Virus record (IMG/VR): IMGVR_UViG_3300033562_000573
Span: 5,287-69,286 of that record
From: a virus
Taxonomy: Duplodnaviria; Caudoviricetes
Reading direction: 5' to 3' (one strand)
DNA length: 64,000 nt
The notes beneath the pieces are model-generated. The model did no database searches. It saw only the letters and a program-made list of their open reading frames with translations, and was not told where the DNA came from. The position numbers were made by a program, and so were the translations under genes. Shown piece by piece: positions 3,866 to 29,922 of the stretch; within the stretch, counting starts at the first letter, position 1, and each line of letters starts with the position of its first letter.

Positions 3866-3885
3866 TAACAAAAATAGGGTTAATT

Positions 3886-4185
3886 ATGAAAAAGACACAT
3901 ATAAAATTTAATATTGTTGGCATAACACCCGAAGGCGTTCATGTAGTGGACAATGTTTTTAGAGTATTTGATACGGACGGTCTTCCATTGGATGAATTGT
4001 TTTATCAATGTAAAGAACATAATTTAATGCCTTCATGGACTAATTTTTATGAAGATGCAAGACTTCAAGGATGGAGTCATAAAACTATTATGAATAGATT
4101 AGAAGTTTCTATTCGTGATGCTTATGGTAAAGAATTTTCTGATGGTGTACTCGAAAGATTACAATTATTTTCAGAATTAACATAA
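3886..4185 (+). CDS. Small protein with an alanyl-tRNA-synthetase-like DTxGxPLD motif
   Basis: VFRVFDTDGLPLDEL resembles AlaRS AFKLYDTYGFPLDL; start reassigned to M23 of the listed ORF. Confidence 0.5.
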   Translation: MKKTHIKFNIVGITPEGVHVVDNVFRVFDTDGLPLDELFYQCKEHNLMPSWTNFYEDARLQGWSHKTIMNRLEVSIRDAYGKEFSDGVLERLQLFSELT

Positions 4186-4192
4186 AGAATTT

Positions 4193-4266
4193 GCTGTTGT
4201 AGCATAATTGGTTAATGCGCTGTCTTGGTATGACAGATAGTGGTGGTTCGATCCCACTCAATAGCT
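4193..4266 (+). tRNA. tRNA-Thr(GGU)
   Basis: CTGTC-TTGGTAT-GACAG. Confidence 0.88.
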
Positions 4267-4274
4267 TAAAATTT

Positions 4275-4346
4275 CGGCATGTAGCTCAATGGTGGAGCAG
4301 TGGTTTTACATACCATATGATGGGGGTTCAAGTCCCTCCATGCCGA
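4275..4346 (+). tRNA. tRNA-Val(UAC)
   Basis: GTGGT-TTTACAT-ACCAT; CGGCATG/CATGCCG. Confidence 0.88.
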
Positions 4347-4399
4347 TTATTCGAACTTGTTAATTATATAAACTAAGTATATAGATAAGGTGTTCGAAA

Positions 4400-4972
4400 A
4401 TGAAAATTAAATGCAAATTCTGCGAATGTGAATTTATTGGAGATAATACACGAAAATTTTGTAGTTCTGTGTGTTCTGCTAAATTTAATAATAAAGGTAT
4501 ATGCAGAAATAAAAAGAAAAAATTAGATAACTGTATTAATTGTGGTGGTAAATTAAATAAATCATCACAGAAAAAATTTTGTTCATTAAGTTGTTCAAAT
4601 GAATATAAGTGGTTACATAAAATGATTCCTTTAATTGAATCAGGTAAATGTACACAACAATTAACAGTTAAGAAATATTTGTTTATGACTCGTGGGGAGA
4701 AATGTGAATTATGTGGTCAATTACCAACATGGAATGGAAAGCCGTTAACATTACAAATCGATCATATAGATGGTAACTCTGATAACAATGAATTGAATAA
4801 TGTTAGAATATTATGCCCACATTGTCATAGTCAAACTGATACCTTTGTATCACGCAATATAAAAAATACTAATAGAAATAGTTATTTGCGTAGATATAAG
4901 AAAAAAGTAATGTACATGGAAAATATAATTAAAAAAAAAGATACAATATGCCGTATAGACAATGCGAATTAA
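4400..4972 (+). CDS. HNH homing endonuclease with zinc-binding N-terminus
   Basis: CELCG...LQIDHIDGNSDNNELNNVRILCPHCHSQT. Confidence 0.85.
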   Translation: MKIKCKFCECEFIGDNTRKFCSSVCSAKFNNKGICRNKKKKLDNCINCGGKLNKSSQKKFCSLSCSNEYKWLHKMIPLIESGKCTQQLTVKKYLFMTRGEKCELCGQLPTWNGKPLTLQIDHIDGNSDNNELNNVRILCPHCHSQTDTFVSRNIKNTNRNSYLRRYKKKVMYMENIIKKKDTICRIDNAN

Positions 4973-5175
4973 AGCGAAGTGAAAATGGTAATTCTCTTAC
5001 TACTGTAAGTTATATTCCATCTAAGTTAGCAAAAGTAGGTCGTAAAATTGAAGTTCAAGAGAATGAAATCTGGACTGCATGGACAGTTGATAAAATAAGT
5101 GATGTAGAAATTTCAGATGAAGTTGCCAAAAAGACACAGAAGATGTGGCATGGTGGCTGGAATAATAACATTTAA
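4948..5175 (+). CDS. Hypothetical protein
   Basis: ORF coupled to its neighbours; no recognised motif. Confidence 0.6.
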   Translation: MPYRQCELKRSENGNSLTTVSYIPSKLAKVGRKIEVQENEIWTAWTVDKISDVEISDEVAKKTQKMWHGGWNNNI

Positions 5176-5369
5176 TGGAATTAGACATGACATTAATGTT
5201 GAAAGTTATTATATCGTTATTTGGTGTTGTTTTTGTACTTGGGATTTATAATAAAATTCAAGAACGAAGAGAATATAAAAAAATGATGGATCAGATTCAG
5301 AAGGATAAAGAAAAAAATAGAAGACCATCTTCTAGTTATACTTTATCTTCTGAAGATGGTTATAAGTAA
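5175..5369 (+). CDS. Small single-pass membrane protein
   Basis: Hydrophobic N-terminus, basic tail. Confidence 0.55.
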   Translation: MELDMTLMLKVIISLFGVVFVLGIYNKIQERREYKKMMDQIQKDKEKNRRPSSSYTLSSEDGYK

Positions 5370-5374
5370 GATAT

Positions 5375-5461
5375 AGATGGATACTCGAATTGGTTCTCAG
5401 AGGGCAGTCTGATAAGCTGTTTGGCACAATCCTTATGTGGGTTCAAGTCCCACTCCATCTA
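5375..5461 (+). tRNA. tRNA-Ile(GAU) with long variable arm (copy 2)
   Basis: Near-identical to 3368-3454. Confidence 0.75.
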
Positions 5462-5467
5462 CGATAA

Positions 5468-5541
5468 GGGCATGTTTCCTAGTGGTTAAGGAGCCTGACT
5501 GTCTATCAGGATTTTCAGGGGTTCGAATCCCCTCATGCTCG
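5468..5541 (+). tRNA. tRNA-Asp(GUC)
   Basis: CCTGA-CTGTCTA-TCAGG. Confidence 0.9.
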
Positions 5542-5649
5542 TATTTTTTATCACATTATATTGATGTGATAATTATGGGTGGTTCATTCCCCATTAGATG
5601 TTTTTAGTTCATTCCCTATTTATTATAAACTATTATTTTAGGTGATTAC

Positions 5650-6414
5650 ATGATAAATAAGTTGAATGAATATAATAAAATATGCCCACGATGTGGTGGT
5701 GAATTTACTGTTAAGTGTAGAGAATCTGAAATACATAATCCTAAAAAAGTGCGTGTATATTGCAGTGATGTATGTAGTAGAGCTAGAATTCTAAGTGAGT
5801 GTACTAAACAGAAAATTGCATCATCGTTAAGAATAATAAGACCTTCTATAATATGTGTATGTTGTGGTGTATCATTTGTTCCCAAACGAAAGTCACAAGT
5901 TATGTGTTCATTAAAATGTGTTGGTATTGTAAATGGTAAAAAAATGACGGATGGTTCTGTTATTGATAAAAAGAATAACCCACAAAAATATTCAGATTTA
6001 CAAAAAACAATGTATGCAAATGGTATACAAAAAGTTGGTGGTGGTAAAACAAAATGGTATACCTATAATAATATTCGTGTACAGGGTACATATGAATTAA
6101 GATGTTGTATAATTCTTGATAAAATGAAATCACTAAATTGCATATATAACTGGGAATACACAAAAGACAGAATACCATACATAGGAATTGATGGAAATTT
6201 ACATAACTATTTACTAGATTTTAAAGTTTATTATTCGCCAACTGAATTCTATTATATAGAAGTTAAAGGATATGTAAAAGATGTCGATTTTCTTAAATGG
6301 AAAGCAGTTGATGATAATGGATTTGTTATGGAGATATGGTATAAAAATAATTTAGAATCACATGAAACTGAATATTTTATTCATAGTAATGAATATCTTC
6401 GATATACAAAATAG
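5650..6414 (+). CDS. Zinc-ribbon + TnsA-like PD-(D/E)XK putative homing endonuclease
   Basis: CxxC/CSxxC repeats; NYLLDFKV...YIEVKG. Confidence 0.7.
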   Translation: MINKLNEYNKICPRCGGEFTVKCRESEIHNPKKVRVYCSDVCSRARILSECTKQKIASSLRIIRPSIICVCCGVSFVPKRKSQVMCSLKCVGIVNGKKMTDGSVIDKKNNPQKYSDLQKTMYANGIQKVGGGKTKWYTYNNIRVQGTYELRCCIILDKMKSLNCIYNWEYTKDRIPYIGIDGNLHNYLLDFKVYYSPTEFYYIEVKGYVKDVDFLKWKAVDDNGFVMEIWYKNNLESHETEYFIHSNEYLRYTK

Positions 6415-6430
6415 TAAATGTAGTCTTTTT

Positions 6431-6505
6431 ATCGGATTAGCTCAGTTGGCTTAGAGCAGGTGCTTCATACGCACAAGGTCACTGGTTCAAGTCCAGTATC
6501 CGGTA
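6431..6505 (+). tRNA. tRNA-Met or Ile2 (CAU)
   Basis: GTGC-TTCATAC-GCAC; cloverleaf; identity not resolvable by eye. Confidence 0.8.
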
Positions 6506-6517
6506 CTATTTTTTCAT

Positions 6518-6592
6518 GCCCAGATAACACAATTGGTAGTGTGCTCGTTTCGTAAGCGAGAGGCTGGCTGGGTTCGAGTCCCCCTTTGGGCT
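6518..6592 (+). tRNA. tRNA-Thr(CGU)
   Basis: CTCGT-TTCGTAA-GCGAG. Confidence 0.8.
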
Positions 6593-6651
6593 TTTTTTAT
6601 TCAATCCAAACTGATTTTAATCTATATTTATAATAAATATTATAGGTTAAT

Positions 6652-7056
6652 ATGTTTACATTAATAGACAATCTTAAAGATCCAGTTGTACATTCAGATA
6701 TTGACGATAAATATCTAGCATCATTTTTTATTCAAATTCCGCTAGACTCATTTGTATTGCAATTTTACGATTGGCAAACAGGCGATGTAATTGAGTATGA
6801 TGAATCAATTAAACAATATGGAATTGAAAGAACTAGACGTAGATTTAGATGCTTATTTACCAATATCACTTCGAATACAGATGAATTAGATTTATTTGCT
6901 TTAATAGTTAAATCTGTAAATATTTGGTACAACGAGAATATTGCACAAATTGAATTACATCATTTAAGTGATTGGGATTATTCTATGTTTTTTAAATATT
7001 TTAAAATTACTAGAATATATAGAGAACCTGACTTAATATTATCATATAAAAGTTAA
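6652..7056 (+). CDS. Hypothetical protein
   Basis: 134-aa ORF followed by a terminator. Confidence 0.6.
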   Translation: MFTLIDNLKDPVVHSDIDDKYLASFFIQIPLDSFVLQFYDWQTGDVIEYDESIKQYGIERTRRRFRCLFTNITSNTDELDLFALIVKSVNIWYNENIAQIELHHLSDWDYSMFFKYFKITRIYREPDLILSYKS

Positions 7057-7068
7057 TAATACATAAAT

Positions 7069-7097
7069 AAAAAGCCATCGTTAGATGGCTTTTTTTA
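7069..7097 (+). terminator. Intrinsic terminator
   Basis: AAAAAGCCATC-GTTA-GATGGCTTTTTTT. Confidence 0.8.
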
Positions 7098-7163
7098 TTT
7101 GTATTCTAGTATAAATTGTGTTATTAAATAGTATATTTTGTGTATAGTTATAGGATAACATAA

Positions 7164-8420
7164 ATGAAATTTAGTATAATAACACCGACACATAATTTTA
7201 GATATATTAAAGAATTATATAATTCCATCATTGAACAAACTCATACCGATTGGGAATGGATATTATATGTGAATGGAAAAGCTATTCATGATAAATTACC
7301 TTCAGTTATACTTGAAGATGAACGAGTGAAAGTATACAAAGACATCTCAAAAAATAATAAAGTTGGCTATGTAAAAAATAAAGCATTCCATTTAGGCACT
7401 GGTGATATCCTAGTTGAAATGGATCATGATGATTTATTGGTTGAAACTTGCTTAGAAAAATTAAATAAAGTATATTCAGAAAATCCAGATGTAGGATTCG
7501 TGTATTCTGATGATGCAAAAATGCAAACAAATGCAGAATTTATACCATTTGGTTCTAGATTTGGATGGGAACCACCATATACATTTGAATATAAAGGCGT
7601 TAACTATCCAGTAATGGGTGGATTTGATGCTGATTCTGGGTCCATGTCATTTATATGGTATCAGCCAAATCATGTGAGAACATGGCGAAAAGAAATATAC
7701 ACTGATATAGGTGGACATGATATTAATTTTGATATTTTGGATGATCAAGATATTATATGTCGAACATATTTAAACACAAAATTTTATTTTATAAAAGAGC
7801 CATTATACATATATCGTGTAGACGGTAATAATACGTGTTACAAACCTGAAATAAATCAGAAAATACAAAACCTCACAGTGGAATTATTCCATAAGTATGC
7901 ATATCAGTTAGCAGAACGTGACGCTGATTTAAAAAATCTATTGAAAATTGATATAGGCGGTGGTATAAATCCAAGACCTGGTTATAAAACTCTTGATATG
8001 TATGACGCTGATTATATTTGTGATCTAAATGATGGTATTCCATTACCTGATAATTCAGTAGGTGTGATAAATGCAAGTCATGTTATTGAACATTTACATG
8101 ATAAACAAAAAACAATGGAAGAGATTTTCAGAGTATTGGTCGATGGAGGATGGGCATTCATCGAAGTTCCATCAACCGATGGAAGAGGTGCGTGGATGGA
8201 CCCAACTCATGTATCATACTGGAATCAGAATTCATTTTATTATTATACACGACAAGATCAAGCACAATATATCAGAAATGATAAAATAAAATTTCAAGAA
8301 TTTAGACTTGAAACTGCATTTCCATCTCAATGGTGGAAAGATAACAATATTCCAGTTGTATATGCATGGTTGCGTGTAATTAAAAGCAATAACCGCAGAC
8401 CAGGTACAAAATTCATTTAA
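7164..8420 (+). CDS. GT2 glycosyltransferase fused to a class I SAM-dependent methyltransferase domain
   Basis: FSIITPT...ILVEMDHDD (DxD); C-terminal DIGGG...ASHVIEHL...RVLVDGG. Confidence 0.8.
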   Translation: MKFSIITPTHNFRYIKELYNSIIEQTHTDWEWILYVNGKAIHDKLPSVILEDERVKVYKDISKNNKVGYVKNKAFHLGTGDILVEMDHDDLLVETCLEKLNKVYSENPDVGFVYSDDAKMQTNAEFIPFGSRFGWEPPYTFEYKGVNYPVMGGFDADSGSMSFIWYQPNHVRTWRKEIYTDIGGHDINFDILDDQDIICRTYLNTKFYFIKEPLYIYRVDGNNTCYKPEINQKIQNLTVELFHKYAYQLAERDADLKNLLKIDIGGGINPRPGYKTLDMYDADYICDLNDGIPLPDNSVGVINASHVIEHLHDKQKTMEEIFRVLVDGGWAFIEVPSTDGRGAWMDPTHVSYWNQNSFYYYTRQDQAQYIRNDKIKFQEFRLETAFPSQWWKDNNIPVVYAWLRVIKSNNRRPGTKFI

Positions 8421-8531: not shown

Positions 8532-11102
8532 ATGTTACAAGAAATATCGAAAGAAGTATGGCACCACAATTATCAAGCACCAGGGGAAACCTCGGTTGAA
8601 GAAACATGGAAGCGTCAAGCAGTAACCGCAGCATCAATAGAAAAAGAAGATATAAGAAAATCAATTGAAAATGATTTCTATTGGTTATTGAATGATTTCA
8701 AGGGCATCGCTGGTGGAAGAATAACAGCTAATCTTGGTGTTAAAGGTCGTGAAGGTACTACCTTAATGAATTGTTTCGTGCATAATCCACGAGATTTGGG
8801 TTATAAAGATCCAGATAGCATCAATGGTATATATGATATGTTAAAGGCACAAGCACTAACATTAAAGTCTGAGGGTGGTTATGGGATGAATTTCTCATGG
8901 ATTCGTCCAGCAGGTATGTATGTTAGAGGTATTGATTCACGAACACCTGGTGTTGTACAGATGATGAGTTTGTGGAATCAAAGTTCTGCTGTTATTACAA
9001 TGGGAAGTGATAAAATTTTAGGTGAATCTTATTCTACTGAAAAGAAAAAGATTCGTAAGGGTGCTCAAATGGGTATTCTTGAAATTTGGCATCCTGAAAT
9101 TGAAAACTTTATTGATGCTAAGTTGGTACAAGGTCAATTAAATAAATTCAATATTTCAGTTGGTATCACCGATGGATTTATGGAAGCTGTTATTAATGAC
9201 GGTGATTGGGAATTGAAATTCCCTAATACCTCACATCCAGAATATTCAACTAAATGGTTTGGTAATATTTCTGAATGGGAAGAACAAGGATTGCCTGTTA
9301 CTGTGTATGCAGTAGTTAAGGCTAGAGATCTATGGGATAAGATCATGAAAGCAACATATACAAGAAATGATCCTGGTGTTCTTTTCTTGGATTTAGCAAA
9401 TAAATTGAATGCATTGTCATATTCCGAAAAGATTGCAACAACTAATCCATGTGGTGAAATTGCTATGTCCACTGGTGTATGTAATCTAATGTCATTGAAT
9501 CTTGTTAAGTATGTAATTAAAGATTCTAATGGTAAGTCAAAATTTGATTATGATACATTTAGAAAGGCAGTTGCCATTGCAGTTAGATTCTCCGATAACA
9601 TTAATGATATCAGCCGAGCACCACTTGAAGAATATAAAGACTCGATGGTTGATAAGAGACGTATTGGTATTGGTGTGTTATCATTAGGATCATTGCATTA
9701 TATTCTAGGAATTCGTTTTGGTTCACCTGAATCACTTGAATTAATTGAATCAATTATGAAATGCAAAGCCGAAAGTGAAATTCAAGCTAGTGCATTGCTA
9801 GGTGTAAAAAAGGGATCATTTAAATTATTCGATCAAGAAAAGTATTTCAATACTTACTGGTGGAAGACTTTAGATCTATCAGAAGAATTCAAAAAGAACA
9901 TTGAATCAATCGGTGCAATGAGAAATTCACATCGTAGTGCTAATGCCCCAACAGGTAACATGAGCATATACTGTGGAGTCGTTTCTGGTGGCATAGAACC
10001 TGTTTTCTTGCAAGAGTATGTACGTTGGGCTATCGTACCAGAACATGACCGTGCAGAGCTTAAAAAGCAGGGTTTAACATTCCCAGAAGCACCAAAGGGT
10101 GAATGGTTTGAAACTGATATTTTCAAGTTTACAAAGCGTGGAACTGACGATATCCTTAAAGGATCATTCAATGGTGTTGAATATGAAATTGATAGGGGTC
10201 GTGGTCTAGTTAAAGCATCCAATGTATCTGACTATGGTTGGTTGTATGCCAAGGAAAATTTCAGTGAAGTTGAATTAGCCGATATGACTGCAAGAGGTGT
10301 ATTCGCTACCACTGATAATTTAGGTGTTGATGACCACTTAAACACATTGAAAATCATTGCTAAATACACTGATATGTCTTCATCAAAGACTGTAAATCTA
10401 CCTGCTGATTATCCATATGAAGAGTTTAAAAATCTTTACTTAGATGCATGGAAATCAGGTATCAAGGGAATTACAACCTATCGTGATGGTACAATGACTG
10501 CTGTGTTGGAAAAGAAACAGGAAACCAGAGAACAACAAGCAGAATTGGAACATATATTTACTGGTGCTAAAGATGGTGTTATTTTGGAAGATGTTAAACT
10601 TCCAAATGAATGTCCTAGTAAGTTGTATGTAATCAAAGATAACAATAAAAAGAAATGGTATGTACATATTGCATTTGCTGACCAAGGATTAACTCGTCCA
10701 TGTGCACTTTTTGTTAATACCAATAGCAAAGAAAGTAATGAAGTTGCAGAAGAAACGATTGAATCATTGATGAAATTGGCAAAGAACAAAGGCATCAAGA
10801 AAAGTCTAATTGGTGATCAGTTGGAAAAATATCTTGGTCAAACCAATGTTACTAAGATTGCTCGTTCAATTGGATTCCTACTTCGCCACAACATTGCAAT
10901 TATTGATATAGTTGATGTATTGGATGAAGGCAAGTATCCATTATCATCATTTACATTCCATGTTAAGAGATTGATAAAACAATTTATTAAAGATGGTACA
11001 TCCGTAAGTGGAAAGAATGGAACCTGCCCTCAATGCGGTGGTACTATGATCTTCCAAGAGGGCTGTATCCTCTGTAAAGATTGTAGCTATTCAAAATGTT
11101 AA
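8532..11102 (+). CDS. nrdJ: Class II (adenosylcobalamin-dependent) ribonucleotide reductase
   Basis: TLMNCFV, TNPCGEI, APTG..GIEP, KGITTYRDG; C-terminal TSCPD-like domain and zinc ribbon; no small subunit nearby. Confidence 0.9.
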   Translation: MLQEISKEVWHHNYQAPGETSVEETWKRQAVTAASIEKEDIRKSIENDFYWLLNDFKGIAGGRITANLGVKGREGTTLMNCFVHNPRDLGYKDPDSINGIYDMLKAQALTLKSEGGYGMNFSWIRPAGMYVRGIDSRTPGVVQMMSLWNQSSAVITMGSDKILGESYSTEKKKIRKGAQMGILEIWHPEIENFIDAKLVQGQLNKFNISVGITDGFMEAVINDGDWELKFPNTSHPEYSTKWFGNISEWEEQGLPVTVYAVVKARDLWDKIMKATYTRNDPGVLFLDLANKLNALSYSEKIATTNPCGEIAMSTGVCNLMSLNLVKYVIKDSNGKSKFDYDTFRKAVAIAVRFSDNINDISRAPLEEYKDSMVDKRRIGIGVLSLGSLHYILGIRFGSPESLELIESIMKCKAESEIQASALLGVKKGSFKLFDQEKYFNTYWWKTLDLSEEFKKNIESIGAMRNSHRSANAPTGNMSIYCGVVSGGIEPVFLQEYVRWAIVPEHDRAELKKQGLTFPEAPKGEWFETDIFKFTKRGTDDILKGSFNGVEYEIDRGRGLVKASNVSDYGWLYAKENFSEVELADMTARGVFATTDNLGVDDHLNTLKIIAKYTDMSSSKTVNLPADYPYEEFKNLYLDAWKSGIKGITTYRDGTMTAVLEKKQETREQQAELEHIFTGAKDGVILEDVKLPNECPSKLYVIKDNNKKKWYVHIAFADQGLTRPCALFVNTNSKESNEVAEETIESLMKLAKNKGIKKSLIGDQLEKYLGQTNVTKIARSIGFLLRHNIAIIDIVDVLDEGKYPLSSFTFHVKRLIKQFIKDGTSVSGKNGTCPQCGGTMIFQEGCILCKDCSYSKC

Positions 11103-11882: not shown

Positions 11883-12233
11883 CTACTGTACACCGTCTGT
11901 TAGACGGAATTCTCGTATTGCCCTTTTTACCTCGGAAATAGGTGGTACATATGACCATAATCCGACGATATAGTAGAAATCACTCCACTCTGCCAGCCAT
12001 TCAATTTCAGGTAGCTTTCCCTCTTTGTGCTTTATCCCATAACAATCAAATTTACACAGGTCAACTACTCCAGCTACCATAGCCATATCCCAAATATCAA
12101 CGGCAACCACCGTGCAGATCTTTATCGCTTCGATATTGGTGTGCTTGGTTCCATCCCAGTTGCTTCTTGTTTGGTACGCCAGAATGTTTCCTGGTTTCAA
12201 TTCATTCCAGATATGTTCTAAAGTCTTTGGCAT
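11883..12233 (-). CDS. Hypothetical protein upstream of the tad1-like gene
   Basis: AAAGGA RBS; same GC-rich segment. Confidence 0.7.
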   Translation of the reverse strand: MPKTLEHIWNELKPGNILAYQTRSNWDGTKHTNIEAIKICTVVAVDIWDMAMVAGVVDLCKFDCYGIKHKEGKLPEIEWLAEWSDFYYIVGLWSYVPPISEVKRAIREFRLTDGVQ

Positions 12234-12657: not shown

Positions 12658-12796
12658 ATTATCAGTTCCTTTTAGATTTAATTCTTATTTAATATAGAAT
12701 AATGGGTTTCTTTTGTCAATGAAAATATATAATGTCACTGTATTACCCTAAAAAAGCTAAAATATTAAACTTTTTTATTAAAATGATAAAAAGTTA

Positions 12797-12825
12797 TTGT
12801 CAAAGTGAATAAAAGTATCTATATT
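12797..12825 (+). promoter_or_regulatory. pncB promoter
   Basis: TTGTCA-N17-TATATT. Confidence 0.6.
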
Positions 12826-12853: not shown

Positions 12854-14089
12854 ATGAGTGCTATTAATACCGAGGAAAATCTCAAAAACGTATATGTCAC
12901 CAAACCAAGGGAACGAATCATCCCTAGTTTGACTTATTGTGATTTTTACAAACTCACAATGCTTCAGTTTTTCTTTCATAAGTTCGCAACAGTCGAGGCA
13001 ACCTATGATTTGAAGGTTCGTTCTGATTTCGACTTTGCTCCACATATCGATGAAATCAATTATCAGATTGATTTGCTATGTGAATTGCGATTCACCGAAG
13101 ATGAATTGCAGAAGATGAGTGATATTCGTTTCTTCAAACCAACTTTCATTGAATTCCTTCGTGGATTTAGCATGAATCGTAAGTATATCCATGCTTATGT
13201 GGACGTTGATGGTAAATTTAAATGTTATTCTAAGGGTCCATTGACTCAAGCAAGTATGGCAGAAATCTATATTCTGACCATTCTCCAAGAAATTCGTAGC
13301 CGTGAAGTACTCACCAACGAAAATTTTGTTACTGGTGAAGAAATTCTCAGCAATAACATTAGTCAGATCAATGAATTTTCTAAGTACAAGCCTTTCAAGG
13401 TGTCTGACTTCTCTTGCCGCCGAGCTGCTTCTGTTCGTTGGTTGGATCATGTTATTAGCCGTTTGAACAAGGAAGTAAGTAATCGTAATTTCACTGGTAC
13501 TTCTTGTGTATACTATGCATTCAAGTACAATATTACTGCGATTGGTACTATGGCACATGAAGCAATGATGCTTGGTCAGGCTATGGTGCATCCATATGAT
13601 TCTCAAGAATTCATTCTTAATAAATGGACTGAAGAATATGAAGGTGATCTTGGTATTGCATTGGGTGATACTTTCGGTGCTGACTACTTCATTAAGAAAG
13701 TATTAAATAAGGGACTTGCATTGCAATTTACTGGTGTTCGTCATGACTCTGGTGATCCGTTCAAATTCGGTGATGATATCATTGACATGTATCGCAGATA
13801 TGGTATTAATGCAATGAATAAGACAATCGTATTCAGTGATGGTCTTACTGTTGAAAAGGCTTTTAAGTTGTGTGAATATTTCAATGGCTTGATTGATACG
13901 TCTTTCGGTATTGGAACTAACCTTGGAAATGCTATGGGGATTCCAGCTTTGCAGATTGTCATGAAGATGGTTGAAGCCAATGGAAAGTCCGTTGCCAAGG
14001 TTTCTGATACGGTTGGTAAGGGCATGTGCCGTGACATGGTTTATGAACAATTTGTCAAGAATCACATTGATACAGTGAACGCACAGTAA
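12854..14089 (+). CDS. pncB: Nicotinate phosphoribosyltransferase
   Basis: DFYKLTM, GTMAHE (phospho-His), RHDSGDP, VFSDGL, FGIGT, AKVSD. Confidence 0.92.
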   Translation: MSAINTEENLKNVYVTKPRERIIPSLTYCDFYKLTMLQFFFHKFATVEATYDLKVRSDFDFAPHIDEINYQIDLLCELRFTEDELQKMSDIRFFKPTFIEFLRGFSMNRKYIHAYVDVDGKFKCYSKGPLTQASMAEIYILTILQEIRSREVLTNENFVTGEEILSNNISQINEFSKYKPFKVSDFSCRRAASVRWLDHVISRLNKEVSNRNFTGTSCVYYAFKYNITAIGTMAHEAMMLGQAMVHPYDSQEFILNKWTEEYEGDLGIALGDTFGADYFIKKVLNKGLALQFTGVRHDSGDPFKFGDDIIDMYRRYGINAMNKTIVFSDGLTVEKAFKLCEYFNGLIDTSFGIGTNLGNAMGIPALQIVMKMVEANGKSVAKVSDTVGKGMCRDMVYEQFVKNHIDTVNAQ

Positions 14090-14129
14090 GCATTACTTAT
14101 GATTGTCAATGGGAATATTAAAATTTCCA

Positions 14130-14158
14130 TTGACAATCGTTTTATATATTTCTATATT
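14130..14158 (+). promoter_or_regulatory. nadE promoter within a 12-bp inverted repeat
   Basis: TTGACA-N17-TATATT. Confidence 0.7.
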
Positions 14159-14187
14159 AGATGAAAGAACAAACATGAGGTTTTATT

Positions 14188-16092
14188 ATGGATATCAGTA
14201 AAGGTGTTAAGATTCGATTGGTTCAAATGGAAATTACCTCAGCCAATCCACGCAAGAATTTTGATGAATGCAAGCGTTATGTTGATGAAGCAAAACGTGA
14301 TGGTATTCAAGTTGTCGTATTCCCAGAATTGTGTATCTCTGGTTATCTGATCGGTGATATGTGGGAAGAACTTTCTTTCCTTGAAGATTGTGAATACTAC
14401 GGTGAAATGCTTGCAAAGGAATCCACCGCAACTGCCATTGTATTTGGTAATGTCTTTGTTGATCGTAACCTTCATGGAACCGATGGTCGTGTTGTAAAAT
14501 TGAATGGTGCGTTTGTTGCACAGTATGGAACATTTGTAAAAAATCGATTTACTAACCTAAGTGTATACCCAAAGACCCTGCTACCAAACTATCGTGAATT
14601 TGAAGAACCTCGCCACTTCAAGGATTGTAAGTGGTATGCAGAAGCCACCGGAATTAATTTTAATCAGTTCTTCCAACCATATGAATTGTTTGATAATATG
14701 GTTGGTATTACTATCTGCGAAGATGCTTGGGATCGTGACTATAAGGATAAGCCTGTAAAAAAGGTTATTGCATGTGGTGCTGATATTGTTCTGAATCTTA
14801 GCTGTTCTCCATTTACTTTGAACAAGAATGTTTCTAGAGATCGTGTGTTTTCTGCGCATGCTAAAGATAATGAAGTTCCTCTTTGTTATGTTAATTCGAT
14901 TGGATTGCAAAACAATGGAAAGACATTGTTTGCCTTTGATGGTTCTACCGTTGCATACAACAGTACTGGTAATACAATTACCAGTACTGTTGATATGTTT
15001 ACATTAGGAACTACCGATGTAATGTTGTATAACGGTGATTTGTATCCTATTGGTGGAATTAATTACAATGAACCATCTGAAATTCAACAGGCATATGAAG
15101 CAATCATTTATGGTATTCGTAAGTACATGGAAATGTCTGGTTTGAAGAAGGTTGTAATTGGTTCTTCTGGTGGTGTTGATAGTGCAGTTAGCGCAGCCTT
15201 GTATGTTGATGCAATTGGTGCTGAAAATGTGTACCTTGTCAATATGCCAAGTCGTTTCAATTCTGCTACCACCAAGGGATTGTCTCAACAGCTTTCCGAT
15301 AATCTTGGCACTCCATACACTGTTGTTCCTATTGGTGACTCGGTTGATTTGACTAAGGCACAGATTGATGCTGTTAAGTTTAGTGATGTGAATGGCACAA
15401 GCTATCCAGATGTTAAGTTGTCTGCATTCAATCTTGAAAATGTACAGGCTCGTGATCGTTCTGCTCGTGTGTTGTCTGCAATTGCATCGGCTATCGGTGC
15501 AGTATTCACCAACAATGGCAACAAGACCGAAACTACAGTTGGGTACGCTACCCTTTATGGTGATGTTGCTGGCTTCATGGCTACCATTGCAGACTTGTGG
15601 AAGACTCAAGTTTATGCTCTTGGTGCATACATTAATGAACGTCATGGTAAGGAAGTTATTCCTACTGGTATCTTCACAATCGTTGCAAGTGCCGAACTTT
15701 CTAACGATCAAAACGTGGATGAAGGTAAGGGTGATCCGATTGTATATTGGTATCATGATTTCCTCTATCGTGCTTGGGTAGAAAAGTGGGATCGTGCAAC
15801 TCCAACCGAAATCATGGATCATTATGTTCAGGGTGATCTATTCAAATTCCTTGGTATTGATAAGGATGAAAAAGAAATTCATATCTTATTCCCTACTGCA
15901 CAGGAATTTGTATCTGACCTTGAACGTTGGTGGAAGCTATTCAAAGGCATGGCTGTGGCAAAGCGTGTACAAGCACCACCTGTACTTGCATTGACTCGTC
16001 GAGCATATGGATTTGATTATCGTGAAACGTTGAATGGTGTCTATTTTAGCAACAGATACCTGAAAATCAAAGAATTTCTTGGGGTAAAGTAA
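14188..16092 (+). CDS. nadE: Glutamine-dependent NAD+ synthetase
   Basis: Nitrilase domain (FPEL, PNYREFEE, ICEDAW) + synthetase domain (SGGVDS, ENVQARDR, NKTE, GYATLYGD). Confidence 0.95.
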   Translation: MDISKGVKIRLVQMEITSANPRKNFDECKRYVDEAKRDGIQVVVFPELCISGYLIGDMWEELSFLEDCEYYGEMLAKESTATAIVFGNVFVDRNLHGTDGRVVKLNGAFVAQYGTFVKNRFTNLSVYPKTLLPNYREFEEPRHFKDCKWYAEATGINFNQFFQPYELFDNMVGITICEDAWDRDYKDKPVKKVIACGADIVLNLSCSPFTLNKNVSRDRVFSAHAKDNEVPLCYVNSIGLQNNGKTLFAFDGSTVAYNSTGNTITSTVDMFTLGTTDVMLYNGDLYPIGGINYNEPSEIQQAYEAIIYGIRKYMEMSGLKKVVIGSSGGVDSAVSAALYVDAIGAENVYLVNMPSRFNSATTKGLSQQLSDNLGTPYTVVPIGDSVDLTKAQIDAVKFSDVNGTSYPDVKLSAFNLENVQARDRSARVLSAIASAIGAVFTNNGNKTETTVGYATLYGDVAGFMATIADLWKTQVYALGAYINERHGKEVIPTGIFTIVASAELSNDQNVDEGKGDPIVYWYHDFLYRAWVEKWDRATPTEIMDHYVQGDLFKFLGIDKDEKEIHILFPTAQEFVSDLERWWKLFKGMAVAKRVQAPPVLALTRRAYGFDYRETLNGVYFSNRYLKIKEFLGVK

Positions 16093-16118
16093 TTTTTTAT
16101 CAAAAAGATAAAAACTTT

Positions 16119-16163
16119 TTGACAAATTGATAAAAATAAGCTATATTATTATCAGATTGATAA
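16119..16163 (+). promoter_or_regulatory. pncA promoter and palindromic operator candidate
   Basis: TTGACA-N17-TATATT, then TTATCA-GAT-TGATAA. Confidence 0.6.
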
Positions 16164-16179
16164 AAACACGGAGTACAAT

Positions 16180-17007
16180 ATGAATATTACAAAGAAACTT
16201 GCAAATTTACTTTTGGTAGACCCACAGAGATGCTTCACTCAGAAGAATGGTGCTCTCTATGTAACTAATGCCGAAAAGGACATGGAAACCATTGCTGGCT
16301 TGATTAAAAGCTATATTGCCAATATTGCTTCTATCGCCATCACTGGTGATTTCCATCCTTCTGTCATGATTTCGTTCCCTAATTATTGGGTAAACGAAAA
16401 GGGTGAAAATCCAAACCCCTTTACGGTTATTTCGGTAAATGATGTTGAAACTGGTGTATGGAAAACAGTTGATCCAGCAAATCAGGAATGGGCTTTATTT
16501 TATGTTCGTCAGCTTGATGAAAATAACAAGACTAAGGCTAACAATTTCTTCGATCTTCGTATTTGGCCTTACCATGCAATAGCAGGTACTGAAGGTGCAA
16601 ATTTTGATCCTATTATTTTGGATGCAGTTGCTCCATATATGGCAGATAAGGTTACTATTGTTATGAAGGGAATGAATCCGCATACTGAACAACAAGGGGC
16701 ATTAGAAGCAGATGTTCCAGTTCCTGGTGATGCACAAACCGCAAAGAATACCGAGTTAGTAAATTGGATTGATAATGCAATTGATAATGGTGGTGATATT
16801 ATTATTGGTGGTGAAAGTCAAGATATATGTTTAGCATATACTGTATATTCTATTTTGAATTATTTACCCCAACAATTTCATAATAGAATTGTGTTATTAT
16901 CTGATTGCATGTCGCCAATTTATCCAAAGAATGGTATTAAATTCTTTAATGATATGCGTGATATATATAATATTAGAATATGTACTACCGATACATATTG
17001 GAAATAA
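16180..17007 (+). CDS. pncA: Nicotinamidase (isochorismatase family)
   Basis: LLVDPQ..F, GDFH, WPYH, KG, GESQDIC (Asp-Lys-Cys triad pattern); NAD gene context. Confidence 0.8.
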   Translation: MNITKKLANLLLVDPQRCFTQKNGALYVTNAEKDMETIAGLIKSYIANIASIAITGDFHPSVMISFPNYWVNEKGENPNPFTVISVNDVETGVWKTVDPANQEWALFYVRQLDENNKTKANNFFDLRIWPYHAIAGTEGANFDPIILDAVAPYMADKVTIVMKGMNPHTEQQGALEADVPVPGDAQTAKNTELVNWIDNAIDNGGDIIIGGESQDICLAYTVYSILNYLPQQFHNRIVLLSDCMSPIYPKNGIKFFNDMRDIYNIRICTTDTYWK

Positions 17008-17100
17008 TATAAATTAATTATGAGGATAGAGATTGCAACTCGATAAGCATATAAACCTAATATGTTTCCTCTTATATTTAGGTATTTACTGAGGCGTAAA

Positions 17101-17883
17101 ATGATCACATACCCACAAGAATATTGGCTCATTATTGATATTGGAAAGACTAGAACCTTAGATAAATCTGATTATAATTATTATACTGAATTGCATCATA
17201 TTATACCAAGATCACAAGGTGGTACAAACGACAAAACTAATTTAGTATTATTAACAGCAGTTGAACATTACAATGCCCATAAAATACTAGCATTAGCAAA
17301 TACACAAATTAATTCTATATATTATGCATGGCATATTATGGCATATAATCCATCAAAAAATAATAGTCGTATATATGAAATACAAGCAGAAGAATATGCA
17401 CAACTTCAAGAGATGCAATCAAAATTACAAAGTGGTGTTAAGCACAGTGCTGATAGAAAATTAAAAAATAGCATAGCAATACAAAATAAATGGAAAATTC
17501 CAGTGTATAGAAATGCTATAATAAAGCAATTGAAATTAAATAATACAGGCGTTAAAAATGGTATGTATGGAAAATCACATACCGATGAAGCTAAGAAAGC
17601 AATATCACTAAAAAATTCTGGATATGTACATACAACAGAGTTTTGTGAATTTCAGAGTAATAAACTCAAATTACAATGGAAATCAAGTGAATTTAGACAG
17701 AAATTAATTGATATGAATACAGGAAAACACAACAAACAATCTAAGCGAGTATGTATAGATGGTATTATATATGATAGCGCATCTGATGCATTTAGGGCTA
17801 TATCACCACCATACAAATTGGTAGCATTTTGTAAACGAATAAGATCAACAACCGAAAAATATAAAGAGTGGTATTATTTATGA
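17101..17883 (+). CDS. HNH/NUMOD3 homing endonuclease inserted in the NAD cluster
   Basis: ELHHIIPRSQGGTNDKTNLVLLTAVEHYNAH; GMYGKSHTDEAK. Confidence 0.85.
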   Translation: MITYPQEYWLIIDIGKTRTLDKSDYNYYTELHHIIPRSQGGTNDKTNLVLLTAVEHYNAHKILALANTQINSIYYAWHIMAYNPSKNNSRIYEIQAEEYAQLQEMQSKLQSGVKHSADRKLKNSIAIQNKWKIPVYRNAIIKQLKLNNTGVKNGMYGKSHTDEAKKAISLKNSGYVHTTEFCEFQSNKLKLQWKSSEFRQKLIDMNTGKHNKQSKRVCIDGIIYDSASDAFRAISPPYKLVAFCKRIRSTTEKYKEWYYL

Positions 17884-18509
17884 CACGAGTTGGAATCTAT
17901 GGTGGTGCGTTCAATCCACCACACAGCGGCCATAAGCATGTAGTAAATCATATTCTTGACGAGAATATCGTTGATGAAGTGTGGATTGTTCCTAGCTACC
18001 GTCATTTTCATGGAAAGGAGATGGTATCACACTCTAGCCGTTGCATGATGTGTGAGTTAATGTTTTCTGACATGGACTGTGTTAGAGTGGTTGATATTGA
18101 ATTTACTTTTTCTGATATGTATCCTGATTATGACGGTTCCACCATTCAATTTATGAAACATTTAAGAAAATCCGTTGACAAAGATCCACAGGATTTCTAT
18201 ATTATCATAGGTCAAGATAATGCAGAACATATGGATACATGGAATCGTGGTGATGAATTAATACAGAATGAAAAATTCATCACCGTTCCACGCAAGTATG
18301 AAGCAAAGTCTGAGCTAAACGGCAATGAATGGTATTTGAATGAGCCACACAAATATTTAACTCGTGTTCCTTATTTTAATGCTAGTTCAACTGAAGTTAG
18401 ACATTTATTTTCGTTAGTAAATGAGAATGGTGTTGATGATCGACTAAAAGCATTGCTTGGTCATGATGTATTTGCCTATACCCAATATAACAAACTTTAC
18501 ATGGAGTAA
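17880..18509 (+). CDS. nadD: Nicotinate/nicotinamide-nucleotide adenylyltransferase
   Basis: VGIYGGAFNPPHSGH, IIGQDN, SST. Confidence 0.9.
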   Translation: MTRVGIYGGAFNPPHSGHKHVVNHILDENIVDEVWIVPSYRHFHGKEMVSHSSRCMMCELMFSDMDCVRVVDIEFTFSDMYPDYDGSTIQFMKHLRKSVDKDPQDFYIIIGQDNAEHMDTWNRGDELIQNEKFITVPRKYEAKSELNGNEWYLNEPHKYLTRVPYFNASSTEVRHLFSLVNENGVDDRLKALLGHDVFAYTQYNKLYME

Positions 18510-18511
18510 AT

Positions 18512-19261
18512 ATGAGTGAAGAACTGAAAGACGATCTATCCAATTACAATAAAGATGTATATGAAAAACCATCTGTCACAGTTGATATTGGAATTTGTAG
18601 AATAATTAACAATAAATTGAGTGTATTACTTATCCAACGATCAAAGCCACCTTTTCGTGATCATTGGGCAATTCCTGGTGGATTTTTGGATGTAGGTCGT
18701 ACTGTATGTCATACTACAGGAGTGATCAAAGAACCAGATCCTTCATTAGAATTTGCTGCATTTCGTGAACTTAGTGAAGAGACTTCCGTTAAAGGCGTTC
18801 CTGTTCATCAATTGATGACTTATGGTGATATTAATCGTGATCCTCGTATGCGTGTAATCACTGTTGCATATTTTGCTGTTGTTAATGATGAATTAATGCA
18901 AGGTGTTACTGTTGAAGCTGGTGATGATGCTCGTGAGAATAGTGCTATATGGCATGATATGGATAATCTACCACCTCTTGCATTTGATCATGAACGGATT
19001 TTATCTGATCTTCGTGAACGCATTCAGGGAAGAATCCAATATACCGATTTGGCATTTCAATTTCTTCCAAAGGAATTTACTTGGACTGAATTGCAGAATG
19101 TTTATGAAATTATTTTAAAACGAAAGTTGATCGCATCTAATTTCCGTCGAAAGATTAAAGCTAGTTATAATATTCAAGATTTAAAGAAAACTAAAGAAAC
19201 CGAAGTTGGTAGACCTGCAAAGCTACTATCATACAACGGTCAAAAACCACTATTTTTCTAA
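18512..19261 (+). CDS. nrtR: NrtR-family Nudix-related transcriptional regulator
   Basis: PSVTVD, WAIPGGF, RELSEET, RDPRMRVITVAY, LAFDH; C-terminal wHTH FTWTELQNVYE...NFRRK...GRPAKL. Confidence 0.88.
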   Translation: MSEELKDDLSNYNKDVYEKPSVTVDIGICRIINNKLSVLLIQRSKPPFRDHWAIPGGFLDVGRTVCHTTGVIKEPDPSLEFAAFRELSEETSVKGVPVHQLMTYGDINRDPRMRVITVAYFAVVNDELMQGVTVEAGDDARENSAIWHDMDNLPPLAFDHERILSDLRERIQGRIQYTDLAFQFLPKEFTWTELQNVYEIILKRKLIASNFRRKIKASYNIQDLKKTKETEVGRPAKLLSYNGQKPLFF

Positions 19262-19266: not shown

Positions 19267-19291
19267 AAAGACACTGAAAAGTGTCTTTTTT
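19267..19291 (+). terminator. Terminator closing the NAD cluster
   Basis: AAAGACAC-TGAAAA-GTGTCTTTT. Confidence 0.7.
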
Positions 19292-19314: not shown

Positions 19315-19737
19315 ATGAATGAAAAAATACTAAAACAATTTATTGATTCCTTTATCACAAAGGAAAATGCTTCATTGATTGAAAGCATACATACAGGTTA
19401 TTCTTGTATATTTGAAGGTTATGCTGATGTGAGAGATATTGAAACAGAAGATGCAGTAACAATGTTTAATAGACAAGCAGCTTATAATAATTCATATGGA
19501 TCAAATCCAGTTTTAGCATTTTTACAACGATCTAGCGAAATATTACAAAATAAATATACCGAAGATCCGAATCCAGAATTAGATTCAATTAGAACCACTA
19601 TTCATTATGAACCAACTGATGATACACAAAGTTATGATAATGATTCATATGAAAATTATTATGAGATGCAAGCGAATAATGAAGATTACGATAATGGATT
19701 TGGTTTAACAAGTAGAGATTTAAAGGATCTTGTATAA
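19315..19737 (+). CDS. Acidic late protein with capsid-targeting-like N-terminus
   Basis: KQF...LIESI...IFE motif; TATAAAC at 19301. Confidence 0.55.
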   Translation: MNEKILKQFIDSFITKENASLIESIHTGYSCIFEGYADVRDIETEDAVTMFNRQAAYNNSYGSNPVLAFLQRSSEILQNKYTEDPNPELDSIRTTIHYEPTDDTQSYDNDSYENYYEMQANNEDYDNGFGLTSRDLKDLV

Positions 19738-19740: not shown

Positions 19741-20064
19741 CTACTCTTTAAATTTGTGTCTATCATCAGGATCATAAAACCATTTAATACCATAATAATC
19801 CATATAATGTATAGACCATCCAGTAGTGGATTTAAATTTACCTAACAGTTGTATACTCTTTTCCGTATTTAGTGCATGCTGACCACTTTTAACTAATGGG
19901 TGATATATTAGTTTATGGCAGGTTGGGCATAAAGGAATTACAACCTTATTTAATGAAGATGGGTTTAATTCTCGTGGTGTAATATGATGGAATTCAATTA
20001 ACGACTTGTTATCGGTTTCATATACGCAGTCTGGAAACCAGCATTTATAGGTAGCTTTATTCAT
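19741..20064 (-). CDS. Small HNH-like protein
   Basis: CWFPDC...EFHHI...LCPTCHKLIY. Confidence 0.65.
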   Translation of the reverse strand: MNKATYKCWFPDCVYETDNKSLIEFHHITPRELNPSSLNKVVIPLCPTCHKLIYHPLVKSGQHALNTEKSIQLLGKFKSTTGWSIHYMDYYGIKWFYDPDDRHKFKE

Positions 20065-27897: not shown

Positions 27898-29922
27898 ATG
27901 GCAAACACACCAAAGTATCATGGGACCCCAATTATCGAAGATAAACATGGGAAAATATTAAGACCAATAACAAGAGGACAACAAGACTTATTAGAGGCAA
28001 TGGAATCTAATGATATTATTTTTGTTAATGGACCTGCCGGAACAGGCAAAGCACAACCATTAACATCAAAACTATTAACACCATCAGGATGGAAATTAAT
28101 GGGTGATGTTAATATAGGAGATAAAATATTTGCCTTTGATGGTTCAATTTGTGATATTACCGGTATATTTCCACAAGGCAATAAAGATATATATGAGGTT
28201 ATATTTGACGATAATTCAAAAACTCATTGTTGCCTTGAGCATTTATGGGAAACAAAAACTGAATTAGAACGAGATAAACGACTTCTATCTTACGGTACAC
28301 CAAGCATAAAAAACTTAGCAGTTATAAAAGATACTTTATATGGACATGATAATAGATTAAATCATAGCATACCAATGGTGAGTAACATTAATTTTATTGG
28401 ATTAGAATTACCATTAGATCCGTATTTTATTGGGTTTCTATTAGGAGATGGTTCTACCAGAGGTGGTAGAGTAAGCATAACAACAGTAGATGATGAGATT
28501 AGTGATTATTGTTATGATATTGCTAAAAAATATAATGGTGATATTCGAAAAGATGGAATTTCATATATATTTAAAAAATTATTTAGAAGTTCATCTAGTA
28601 AATGTGAAATACATGAAATTATTTCATCCATTGGATTAATGAATAAATTATCGTATGATAAATTTATACCTGATATATATAAGTACACCTCATTAGATAA
28701 TAGAATTGCATTATTACAAGGATTATTAGATAGTGATGGTAGTATTGATAAATCTGGACATGTTATTGAATATTCAACCTCATCAAAAACATTGTCGGAT
28801 GATGTTAAATTAATAATACAATCATTAGGTGGGAAGGTATCAGTTACAGAAAAAATACCATCATATTCATATAAAGGTGTTAAAAAAAATGGACATGTAT
28901 CATATAGAATGATTATTAAATTACCACCTGATATAATTCCATTCAGATTAAGTAGAAAAATAGAACGATATATACCCAAATCTAAATATGTACCAGTTAG
29001 ATACATAAAAGAAATTAATTTTGTCGGTAATGATAAATGTCAATGTATTTCTATCGATCATCCTAGACATTTATATATAACAGATGATTTTATAGTGACT
29101 CATAATACGGTTATAGCAACATGGTACGGAATTGCTGGGATAGATGCAGGTCTTTATGATCAACTGGTGCTAACTAGACCAATTGTAGAAGCAGGTGAAG
29201 AATTAGGTTTCTTACCTGGAACGTTTGAAGAAAAAGTTGCTCCTTATATGCAACCATTATATGAAGCTATTGAAGTTGTTAAGGGCAAACGTATTACATC
29301 AGAAATGGATACAAAAATAGGTGCAACACAACAACAGAATTCTTATCGAGATAAGAAGGGAATGTTAAAAAAGAAGCCAGCAAACGATGCCCCATCTAAA
29401 AAGTCTCAGAATGAAGATTTTTATAAAAGAGTAAATGTATGTCCATTAGCTTATCTACGAGGATCTACAAAATCAAAGTCATTCATTATTCTTGATGAAG
29501 CACAAAATGTTACTACAACACAAATGAAATTAATGCTAACTCGTCTTGGACAAGGTTCTAAATTAATTGTATGTGGTGACATAAATCAATCAGATTTGGA
29601 AAGATCGTCAATGTCTGGATTTAGAGAAGCCCAGAAACTTTTGCAGAAAGTTGATAGAATTGGATTCGTTCATCTTGACATAAATGATATTGTCAGACAT
29701 AAGCTAATTCGTGATATTATTATACGTTACGAAAGTAAACAAGCTAAACGAAATAGTGATGTATACAGTAACCGATTTGATAATGAACATGACAATGAAA
29801 ATTTCAGAGATTTAAGAAATTTTGATTGTGATCTTGACGAGGATGCTGATACTGATGAAACAGGTACAGAATATCCTGATAATGAATCAGAGTATGAAGA
29901 AGATAATGTAGAAACAAAATAA
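27898..29922 (+). CDS. phoH: PhoH-family ATPase containing an intein
   Basis: GPAGTGK, LTRPIVEAGEELGFLPG, LAYLRG, DEAQN, LTRLG, GDINQSD. Confidence 0.92.
   Translation: MANTPKYHGTPIIEDKHGKILRPITRGQQDLLEAMESNDIIFVNGPAGTGKAQPLTSKLLTPSGWKLMGDVNIGDKIFAFDGSICDITGIFPQGNKDIYEVIFDDNSKTHCCLEHLWETKTELERDKRLLSYGTPSIKNLAVIKDTLYGHDNRLNHSIPMVSNINFIGLELPLDPYFIGFLLGDGSTRGGRVSITTVDDEISDYCYDIAKKYNGDIRKDGISYIFKKLFRSSSSKCEIHEIISSIGLMNKLSYDKFIPDIYKYTSLDNRIALLQGLLDSDGSIDKSGHVIEYSTSSKTLSDDVKLIIQSLGGKVSVTEKIPSYSYKGVKKNGHVSYRMIIKLPPDIIPFRLSRKIERYIPKSKYVPVRYIKEINFVGNDKCQCISIDHPRHLYITDDFIVTHNTVIATWYGIAGIDAGLYDQLVLTRPIVEAGEELGFLPGTFEEKVAPYMQPLYEAIEVVKGKRITSEMDTKIGATQQQNSYRDKKGMLKKKPANDAPSKKSQNEDFYKRVNVCPLAYLRGSTKSKSFIILDEAQNVTTTQMKLMLTRLGQGSKLIVCGDINQSDLERSSMSGFREAQKLLQKVDRIGFVHLDINDIVRHKLIRDIIIRYESKQAKRNSDVYSNRFDNEHDNENFRDLRNFDCDLDEDADTDETGTEYPDNESEYEEDNVETK
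28051..29106 (+). mobile_element. Ala1 (class 3-like) intein with LAGLIDADG endonuclease, 352 aa
   Basis: GK|AQPL ... VTHN|T; IGFLLGDG and LQGLLDSDG. Confidence 0.9.

Follow-up and report, generated by a model that had tools for sequence, protein, structure and literature searches.

We analyzed a 64-kb stretch of viral DNA (the window), which makes up most of a 69-kb IMG/VR virus record rated 19% complete, for a gene cluster predicted to convert nicotinamide (Nam) back into nicotinamide adenine dinucleotide (NAD+). Profile searches and the open reading frame (ORF) listing place five NAD genes and an HNH endonuclease at 12854-19261, all on the plus strand. The original prediction had named pncB, glutamine-dependent nadE, pncA, nadD, and the regulator gene nrtR as one same-strand cluster, and both the families and the arrangement held up. 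The genes are listed here, with NA for nicotinate, PRPP for phosphoribosyl pyrophosphate, NaMN for nicotinate mononucleotide, and NaAD for nicotinate adenine dinucleotide.

12854..14089, plus strand: pncB, nicotinate phosphoribosyltransferase (NA + PRPP to NaMN), assigned by NF003704 and the Pfam domains NAPRTase and NAPRTase_N
14188..16092, plus strand: nadE, glutamine-dependent NAD+ synthetase (NaAD to NAD+), with CN_hydrolase and NAD_synthase domains
16180..17007, plus strand: pncA, predicted divergent nicotinamidase (Nam to NA), assigned by catalytic residues and an AlphaFold model; its last ~70 residues are a recombinant tract
17062..17883, plus strand: free-standing HNH homing endonuclease, with HNH, NUMOD3, and an I-TevI-type DNA-binding domain
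17880..18509, plus strand: nadD, predicted nicotinate-mononucleotide adenylyltransferase (NaMN to NaAD), assigned by TIGR00482 and motifs
18512..19261, plus strand: nrtR, Nudix-related transcriptional regulator, with NUDIX (PF00293) and NrtR_WHD (PF21906) domains; NF050029, 148.7 bits

The enzymes and their host contig

PncB exceeds the curated cutoffs over its full length, scoring 395.6 bits against 379 for NF003704 and 323.4 against 269.55 for TIGR01514, which places it among the type I enzymes; it is only distantly related to Nampt (phrog_448, E 5e-14). The best structure match of NadE is PDB 4f4h from Burkholderia (E 1.8e-47). Aligned to that structure, the nitrilase triad E47/K129/C177 is intact, and the ATP-pyrophosphatase loop SGGVDS lies at residue 327. 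With 318 bits against an NCBIfam equivalog cutoff of 479 (NF010588), NadE is a divergent member of its family. NadD carries the nucleotidyltransferase motifs GGAFNPPHSGH at residues 9-22 and SSTEVR near residue 173, and scores 99.5 bits with TIGR00482, for which the curated equivalog cutoff is 112.45. The true nadD start is probably the ATG at 17880, overlapping the stop codon of the HNH gene as ATGA.

PncA is the weakest gene call of the cluster, with 35.1 bits against a cutoff of 174 for NCBIfam NF008623 (E 1e-8), a PDB sequence match at E 7e-4, and no Pfam match in the profile search. A database search placed it in a small protein family, encoded on large contigs (70-195 kb), whose remoter members carry the Isochorismatase domain PF00857. 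A 19-sequence alignment that includes canonical bacterial PncAs shows that the triad D14, K163, and C217 is conserved, as are the metal-binding residues D57, H59, and H132. The AlphaFold model has a pLDDT (predicted local distance difference test) score of 94.4, and its 20 best PDB fold matches are all nicotinamidases (yeast, Acinetobacter, Leishmania, Drosophila, Pyrococcus, Streptococcus, Bacillus, and Mycobacterium), with target-normalized template-modeling (TM) scores of ~0.8. By its conserved residues and predicted fold, PncA is a divergent nicotinamidase whose active site is intact and whose predicted substrate is nicotinamide. An IMG/VR scan with the single PncA protein gave no match, and a pattern search with a narrower alignment (A3) recovered only one contig, L002, which is introduced below. 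Judged by families and conserved residues, no enzyme of the four-step route is missing, and all four look catalytically intact.

The HNH ORF sits between pncA and nadD, as the original prediction of an inserted homing endonuclease had it. In three other contigs (L002, L003, and L018), pncA directly abuts nadD with no endonuclease between them. Contigs from two other public runs carry an endonuclease-free allele that links position 16815 to 17880 through only 200 other letters, and one endonuclease-free metagenome contig is ~96% identical to the window across pncB-pncA. The gene is thus a real insertion, being missing at this junction both in relatives and in near-identical metagenome contigs. 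The end of pncA is a mosaic: the protein is 97.6% identical to its closest relative, P0122, over residues 1-205 and just 57% identical over residues 206-275. Because this break coincides with the joint at the edge of the HNH insertion (mosaic and insert together span 16795-17883), the mosaic end looks like a co-conversion tract left by homing. The catalytic C217 falls within the exchanged tract, yet is retained. This ORF has all the hallmarks of a homing endonuclease: nuclease and DNA-binding modules, an insertion site occupied in some contigs and empty in others, and a co-conversion tract on its flank.

The window encodes 18 tRNA genes, ribonucleotide reductase (RNR), ThyA, a sigma factor, PhoH with an insert, GIY-YIG and HNH endonucleases, T4-type RNA ligase, guanylate kinase (gmk), phage lysozyme, and dCMP deaminase; no structural phage gene was found within its 64 kb. 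An NrtR alignment search of IMG/VR yielded two more contigs, L002 (G001) and L003, that are collinear with the window over >18 kb, with ~25 window ORFs syntenic in L002. Both keep the order of the NAD genes, at 36-79% protein identity, and this recurrence shows that the clustering is not due to chance. L002 is 164.7 kb long and is rated 39% complete; among its gene products are a terminase and a T4 gp23 major capsid protein (E 7.7e-69). Synteny with this contig assigns the cluster to a giant T4-like phage lineage. The host genome of the cluster would accordingly be that of an uncultivated phage of ~360-420 kb, by completeness estimates.

The original prediction had also taken the contig to be phage rather than bacterial, and these findings bear it out. 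It is highly improbable that the cluster is an ordinary chromosomal operon on a bacterial contig or on a mis-binned chimera. Such a reading could appeal to five genes that are all typical of bacteria and to a window that itself lacks a structural phage gene, but it has to contend with the synteny to a contig bearing gp23 and terminase, with the tRNA array, homing endonucleases, T4-type RNA ligase, and lysozyme in the window, and with the same gene order in three separate virus records. The best bacterial NrtR matches, from a pattern-limited scan of genome contigs, are ~50% identical and come from Spirochaetota and Leptospirales metagenome-assembled genomes; they establish neither donor nor host. 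When the whole region was compared with deposited phages at the nucleotide level, only the HNH gene matched; its matches were in T4-like phages of Klebsiella and Escherichia (~72% identity). The stretch is fully present in one microbial-mat metagenome run, and that run may be its source; no RNA run is listed as containing it. Run X5 is labeled cDNA and was rated as probably DNA, so the high contig depth there is no measure of expression.

NrtR and its candidate operators

The last gene of the cluster encodes a protein that aligns over its full length to Shewanella NrtR (PDB 3gz5, E 4.7e-27). It keeps the RELSEE segment (RE-x2-EE) of the Nudix box, and a variable loop breaks the G-x5-E part; residual hydrolase activity is conceivable from these residues. 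ADP-ribose (ADPR) frees the NrtRs of Shewanella, Synechocystis, and Mycobacterium from DNA (PMC2330246, PMC6800001).

One class of promoter, TTGACA-N17-(C)TATATT, precedes pncB, nadE, and pncA and recurs across the window. The pncA promoter is flanked by two copies of TTATC-N5-GATAA, with 52 bp, or five helical turns, between their centers. The palindrome is absent from eight further window promoters of this class and is thus not part of the generic promoter. The control elements assigned to the cluster are as follows.

12775..12789, no strand assigned: distal NrtR-box candidate upstream of the pncB -35 element, TTATTAAAATGATAA, with one mismatch; the same position is filled in L002 (2386) and L003 (478)
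12797..12825, plus strand: putative sigma-70-like pncB promoter, TTGTCA-N17-TATATT, by consensus match
14099..14140, plus strand: hairpin (18-bp stem) ahead of a T-run, likely the pncB terminator; its 3' arm carries the -35 element of the nadE promoter
14130..14158, plus strand: nadE promoter, TTGACA-N17-TATATT, without an NrtR box in this phage; the L002 nadE promoter has both boxes
16097..16111, no strand assigned: distal NrtR-box candidate of the pncA promoter, TTATCAAAAAGATAA, centered near -50, just upstream of the -35 element
16119..16147, plus strand: promoter of the pncA-(HNH)-nadD-nrtR unit, TTGACA-N17-TATATT
16149..16163, no strand assigned: proximal NrtR-box candidate, TTATCAGATTGATAA, which abuts the -10 element, covers the likely start site, and lies 52 bp from the distal box
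19267..19288, plus strand: intrinsic terminator-like hairpin closing the pncA unit

The two-site layout recurs in both related phages: in L002 at the nadE and pncA promoters, with a distal copy at pncB, and in L003 at pncB and at a second pncA paralogue (pncA2). In a metagenome scan with the NrtR alignment, the same layout was found to head three further operons whose NrtRs are 47-53% identical to that of the window: pncA-pncB-nrtR (L021), pncA-pncB-nadE-nrtR (L023), and pncB-nadE-pncA-nrtR (L029). L021 is bacterial, since its neighbors are two-component, GGDEF, and murein-transglycosylase genes. L023 lies on a contig of 63% G+C, so an AT-rich palindrome is very unlikely to occur there by chance. 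Beyond the window, the layout is present in both related phages, in another contig of phage-like character, and in two contigs that are bacterial, with NrtRs 47-68% identical, and boxes of the form TTATCA-N3-TGATAA stand at NAD promoters in six loci. The NrtR-encoding loci, 676 kb in total, contain 17 exact TTATC-N5-GATAA sites, compared with 0.83 expected from 30 first-order Markov shuffles, and eight pairs of sites spaced 49-55 bp apart, compared with none in the shuffles. The consensus of 20 sites is aTTaTTATCAaAaTGATAAAAA, that is, TTATCA-N3-TGATAA.

By the comparative logic that defined NrtR regulons (PMC2330246), we read TTATCA-N3-TGATAA as the candidate operator of this NrtR clade. Boxes particular to one NrtR clade are known from Mycobacterium and Streptococcus, among others (PMC6800001), and divergent boxes are also described in PMC2330246. 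A palindrome scan for the canonical 21-bp GT-N7-AC form found three in the window and none near the cluster. With candidate operators on the pncB and pncA promoters that are conserved across relatives, the earlier proposal that NrtR belongs to the cluster as its regulator is very probable. A host NrtR of the same clade could act on the boxes too.

The positions of promoters, boxes, and hairpins suggest that pncA-(HNH)-nadD-nrtR is an autorepressed unit ended by the terminator at 19267-19288, with pncB partly controlled and nadE unregulated in this phage. The idea that the whole route is under one ADPR switch is not borne out, because nadE has its own promoter without an operator. The description of the cluster as induced by ADPR also overstated the case, as it extends what is known of bacterial NrtRs to the phage protein. 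Because an incoming genome brings no repressor, a circuit that is on at entry and then shut down unless ADPR persists fits better.

Three other sites were set aside. A promoter-like TTGACA-N17-TATATT within nadD, followed by TTATC-N9-GATAA (18175-18225), has no counterpart in L002 or L003 and was dropped as probably due to chance; it may instead be a new promoter for nrtR, gained once the HNH gene had come in. The other two, exact boxes at 50123 and 52937, lie outside a promoter setting.

Neighboring genes

Upstream of the cluster, on the opposite strand, lies a gene related to a known phage counter-defense.

11413..11769, minus strand: homologue of Tad1, the Thoeris anti-defense sponge, 1.1 kb upstream of the cluster; a neighbor and not an operon member

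A phmmer search matched residues 8-116 of its 118 to PDB 8kbb, "Thoeris anti-defense 1" (E 1.9e-33), and matched five further Tad1 PDB chains at ~5e-14; the Pfam match to Acb2_Tad1_hairpin is weak (25.2 bits). The gene sits in a slightly GC-richer block of minus-strand genes, located between RNR and pncB, that has no counterpart in the two relatives, and Tad1 was not found in the available parts of the L002 and L003 fragments. By homology, Tad1 next door fits a role for the cluster against enzymes that cleave NAD+ (NADases).

Downstream, nrtR is followed in all three phages by a 140-amino-acid ORF with no detectable family (19315-19737, plus strand) and then by a 107-amino-acid ORF with a faint HNH match (19741-20064, minus strand), at 47-72% identity. 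These two precede gmk and the RnlA-type RNA ligase. The first of them, like the ORF at 11883-12233 (minus strand), gave no Pfam, PHROG, or PDB-sequence match.

The relatives carry other genes within the cluster. Three radical-SAM-domain genes separate pncB from nadE in L002 (3721-6452). In L003 (59 kb), the interval between nadE and pncA (3616-8060) contains the second pncA paralogue along with a glycyl-radical-like ORF and genes for a PP2C phosphatase and a protein-kinase-like product; a kinase-like gene is also found in the L020 cluster. Elsewhere in the window, the PhoH-like gene (27898-29922, 674 amino acids) and the RNR large subunit (8532-11102, 856 amino acids) may carry inteins or other insertions. 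The first 420 residues of the PhoH-like protein also match terminase, primase, and helicase-loader families, and its L002 counterpart has 342 amino acids.

Known systems and the proposed role of the cluster

Phage-encoded NAD+ resynthesis is described for NARP1 (Adps + Namat), NARP2 (Nampt + Nmnat), and, since 2026, NARP3 (PnuC + NadR; PMC13464706). NARP2, which also starts from nicotinamide, overcomes several NADase defenses (bioRxiv 10.1101/2024.02.11.579819). Each of the three is a two-step amidated route for which no dedicated regulator has been described. In contrast, the window route would take four steps, be deamidated through nicotinate, NaMN, and NaAD, end in a glutamine-dependent amidation, and be paired with a repressor of an ADPR-responsive type. 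We saw no homology to Adps, Namat, PnuC, or NadR in the cluster, and PncA, NadE, and a phage NrtR go unmentioned in the NARP1, NARP2, and NARP3 papers. The original prediction had set the cluster apart from NARP1 and NARP2; the deamidated four-enzyme set confirms that much, but its list of phage routes now has to include NARP3.

The claim that such a set is without precedent in phages does not stand. Preiss-Handler clusters were published in 2024 for giant "NAD-jumbo phages", for example pncB-nadD-nadE in Kuafu_71 (Microbiome 2024, PMC11662467), and these share clustered deamidated-route genes with the window. In that paper NrtR does not occur, pncA appears only in passing in the Discussion, and no operator is described; compared with those phages, the window cluster adds pncA, and so a route back to nicotinamide, and a regulator with candidate sites. 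Bacillus phage G (NC_023719), which is cultured and has a 497-kb genome, is annotated with the same five functions: an NrtR-like Nudix protein, isochorismatase/PncA, NAPRTase, NaMN adenylyltransferase, and NAD synthetase fall within 8 kb (gp273-gp283). Its NrtR-like protein is 36% identical to the window NrtR over residues 12-246. Phage G differs in gene order, in a NadE that is of the short ammonia type by length, and in belonging to an unrelated lineage; no TTATC-N5-GATAA pair was found in its NAD region, and we found no functional study of its NAD cluster in the literature. Agrobacterium phage Atu_ph07 encodes NAPRTase and NAD synthetase. Few deposited phages have a NadE of the glutamine type (12 of 50,697 records).

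The closest likeness in layout is to bacterial NrtR-regulated pncA-pncB-nadE(-nadD) salvage operons (Rodionov et al. 2008, PMC2330246), such as pncA-pncB1-nadE of P. aeruginosa (PMC7318152). These have the same enzymes, the same repressor family, palindromic promoter operators (candidates here), and nrtR in or beside the operon, and the bacterial loci L021 and L023 use the identical box and two-site layout. Unlike them, the window cluster belongs to a lytic-type giant phage, is divided into three transcription units with phage-style early promoters, is interrupted by a homing endonuclease, and has a box without the common GT-N7-AC core. The gene set itself is already known from other giant phages. 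In the literature searched, a repressor with conserved two-site operators on phage promoters has not been described, nor has wiring of this kind shared with bacterial operons, and a Tad1 neighbor is unreported; the candidate operator wiring and the Tad1 neighbor are what is new.

The four enzyme families define the likely chemistry. PncA would convert nicotinamide to nicotinate, PncB would join nicotinate and PRPP into NaMN with use of ATP, NadD would adenylate NaMN to NaAD at the cost of ATP, and NadE would form NAD+ from NaAD with ATP and glutamine. Sigma-70-like early promoters would drive the NAD genes, with nrtR last in the pncA unit. An NrtR dimer would bind the TTATCA-N3-TGATAA boxes, a pair around the pncA promoter and a single one ahead of that of pncB, and repress the unit that includes its own gene. 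ADPR, the other product of NAD+ cleavage, would release the phage NrtR as it does characterized NrtRs. With no repressor present on arrival, the module would first be on and then be turned down unless ADPR is high, as it would remain while a SIR2, TIR, or SEFIR NADase fires.

On balance, we favor reading the cluster as a phage version of the bacterial NrtR-controlled nicotinamide salvage operon, which would keep NAD+ available above all against NAD+-depleting defenses. An anti-defense purpose is plausible because NARP2 shares the substrate nicotinamide and overcomes several NADase systems, and because Tad1 adjoins the cluster. A number of points weigh on the other side. The four-step route is dearer in ATP than the two-step NARP2 and needs host PRPP and glutamine, and neither a PRPP synthetase (Prs) gene (PF13793) nor an NAD-dependent ligase (PF01653) was found in the three phage fragments, although these are each at most 39% complete, so such absences show little. 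NrtR, NadD, and NadE all score below the NCBIfam curated equivalog cutoffs. The candidate box lacks the GT-N7-AC core common to most described NrtR motifs (PMC2330246), and the Mycobacterium NrtR needed very high ADPR for release from DNA (PMC6800001). Control is partial, since in the window nadE has no box and pncB only the distal one. Tad1 is not beside the cluster in the two relatives, so its adjacency may be accidental, and jumbo phages bear many metabolic genes with no link to defense (PMC11662467). A stronger version, possible but held only tentatively, is a damage-sensing switch in which the phage NrtR would read ADPR and resynthesis would run only while immunity burns NAD+, with Tad1 sequestering the Thoeris signal; if true, the cluster would add a fourth NAD+ route, chemically distinct from the others, and be the first in phages with a described metabolite-gated regulator.

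A purely metabolic role is a serious rival, and one compatible with the anti-defense reading, if on our estimate a rather doubtful one. The cluster would then be a general auxiliary module that boosts or steadies the NAD+ pool for a long, demanding phage replication cycle and its NAD+-using enzymes, with NrtR serving ordinary homeostasis as in bacteria and nothing tying the module to immunity in particular. Complete salvage or Preiss-Handler sets in 174 of 668 gut jumbo phages were read in just this way, as an independent source of NAD+ (PMC11662467); ordinary bacterial genomes also have this operon with these operators, and RNR, gmk, ThyA, and dCMP deaminase nearby all belong to nucleotide metabolism. 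However, the amidated phage routes were also long taken as metabolic before counter-defense was shown (bioRxiv 10.1101/2024.02.11.579819), a Tad1 gene lies 1.1 kb away, and the NAD-dependent ligase is among the genes missing from the three fragments. It is improbable that the boxes are read mainly by a host NrtR, which would keep the phage genes silent until host ADPR rises; the phage NrtR could then be a decoy, or a Nudix protein that binds or hydrolyzes ADPR. Bacterial NrtRs ~50% identical to the phage protein share the box and its two-site layout, and an intact Nudix signature, of which the phage NrtR retains RE-x2-EE, is tied to ADPR pyrophosphatase activity in some NrtRs (PMC2330246). Against this, the variable loop splits the G-x5-E part of the Nudix box, and the winged-helix domain and NFRRKI segment are conserved in all phage copies, arguing for retained DNA binding.

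NAD+ depletion is among the commonest bacterial anti-phage strategies, and each NAD+-rebuilding route found in phages (NARP1, 2, and 3) has altered the reading of host range and of phage therapy failures. We rate the interest of this locus as moderate to good because it makes regulated counter-defense directly testable. It is a concrete candidate for a fourth route, through nicotinate, with a defined set of promoter, operator, and repressor. The candidate operator motif would also fill in the regulon of a so far uncharacterized bacterial NrtR clade, and the promoter-operator-repressor set lets one ask whether a phage tunes its counter-defense to the chemical trace of immune attack.

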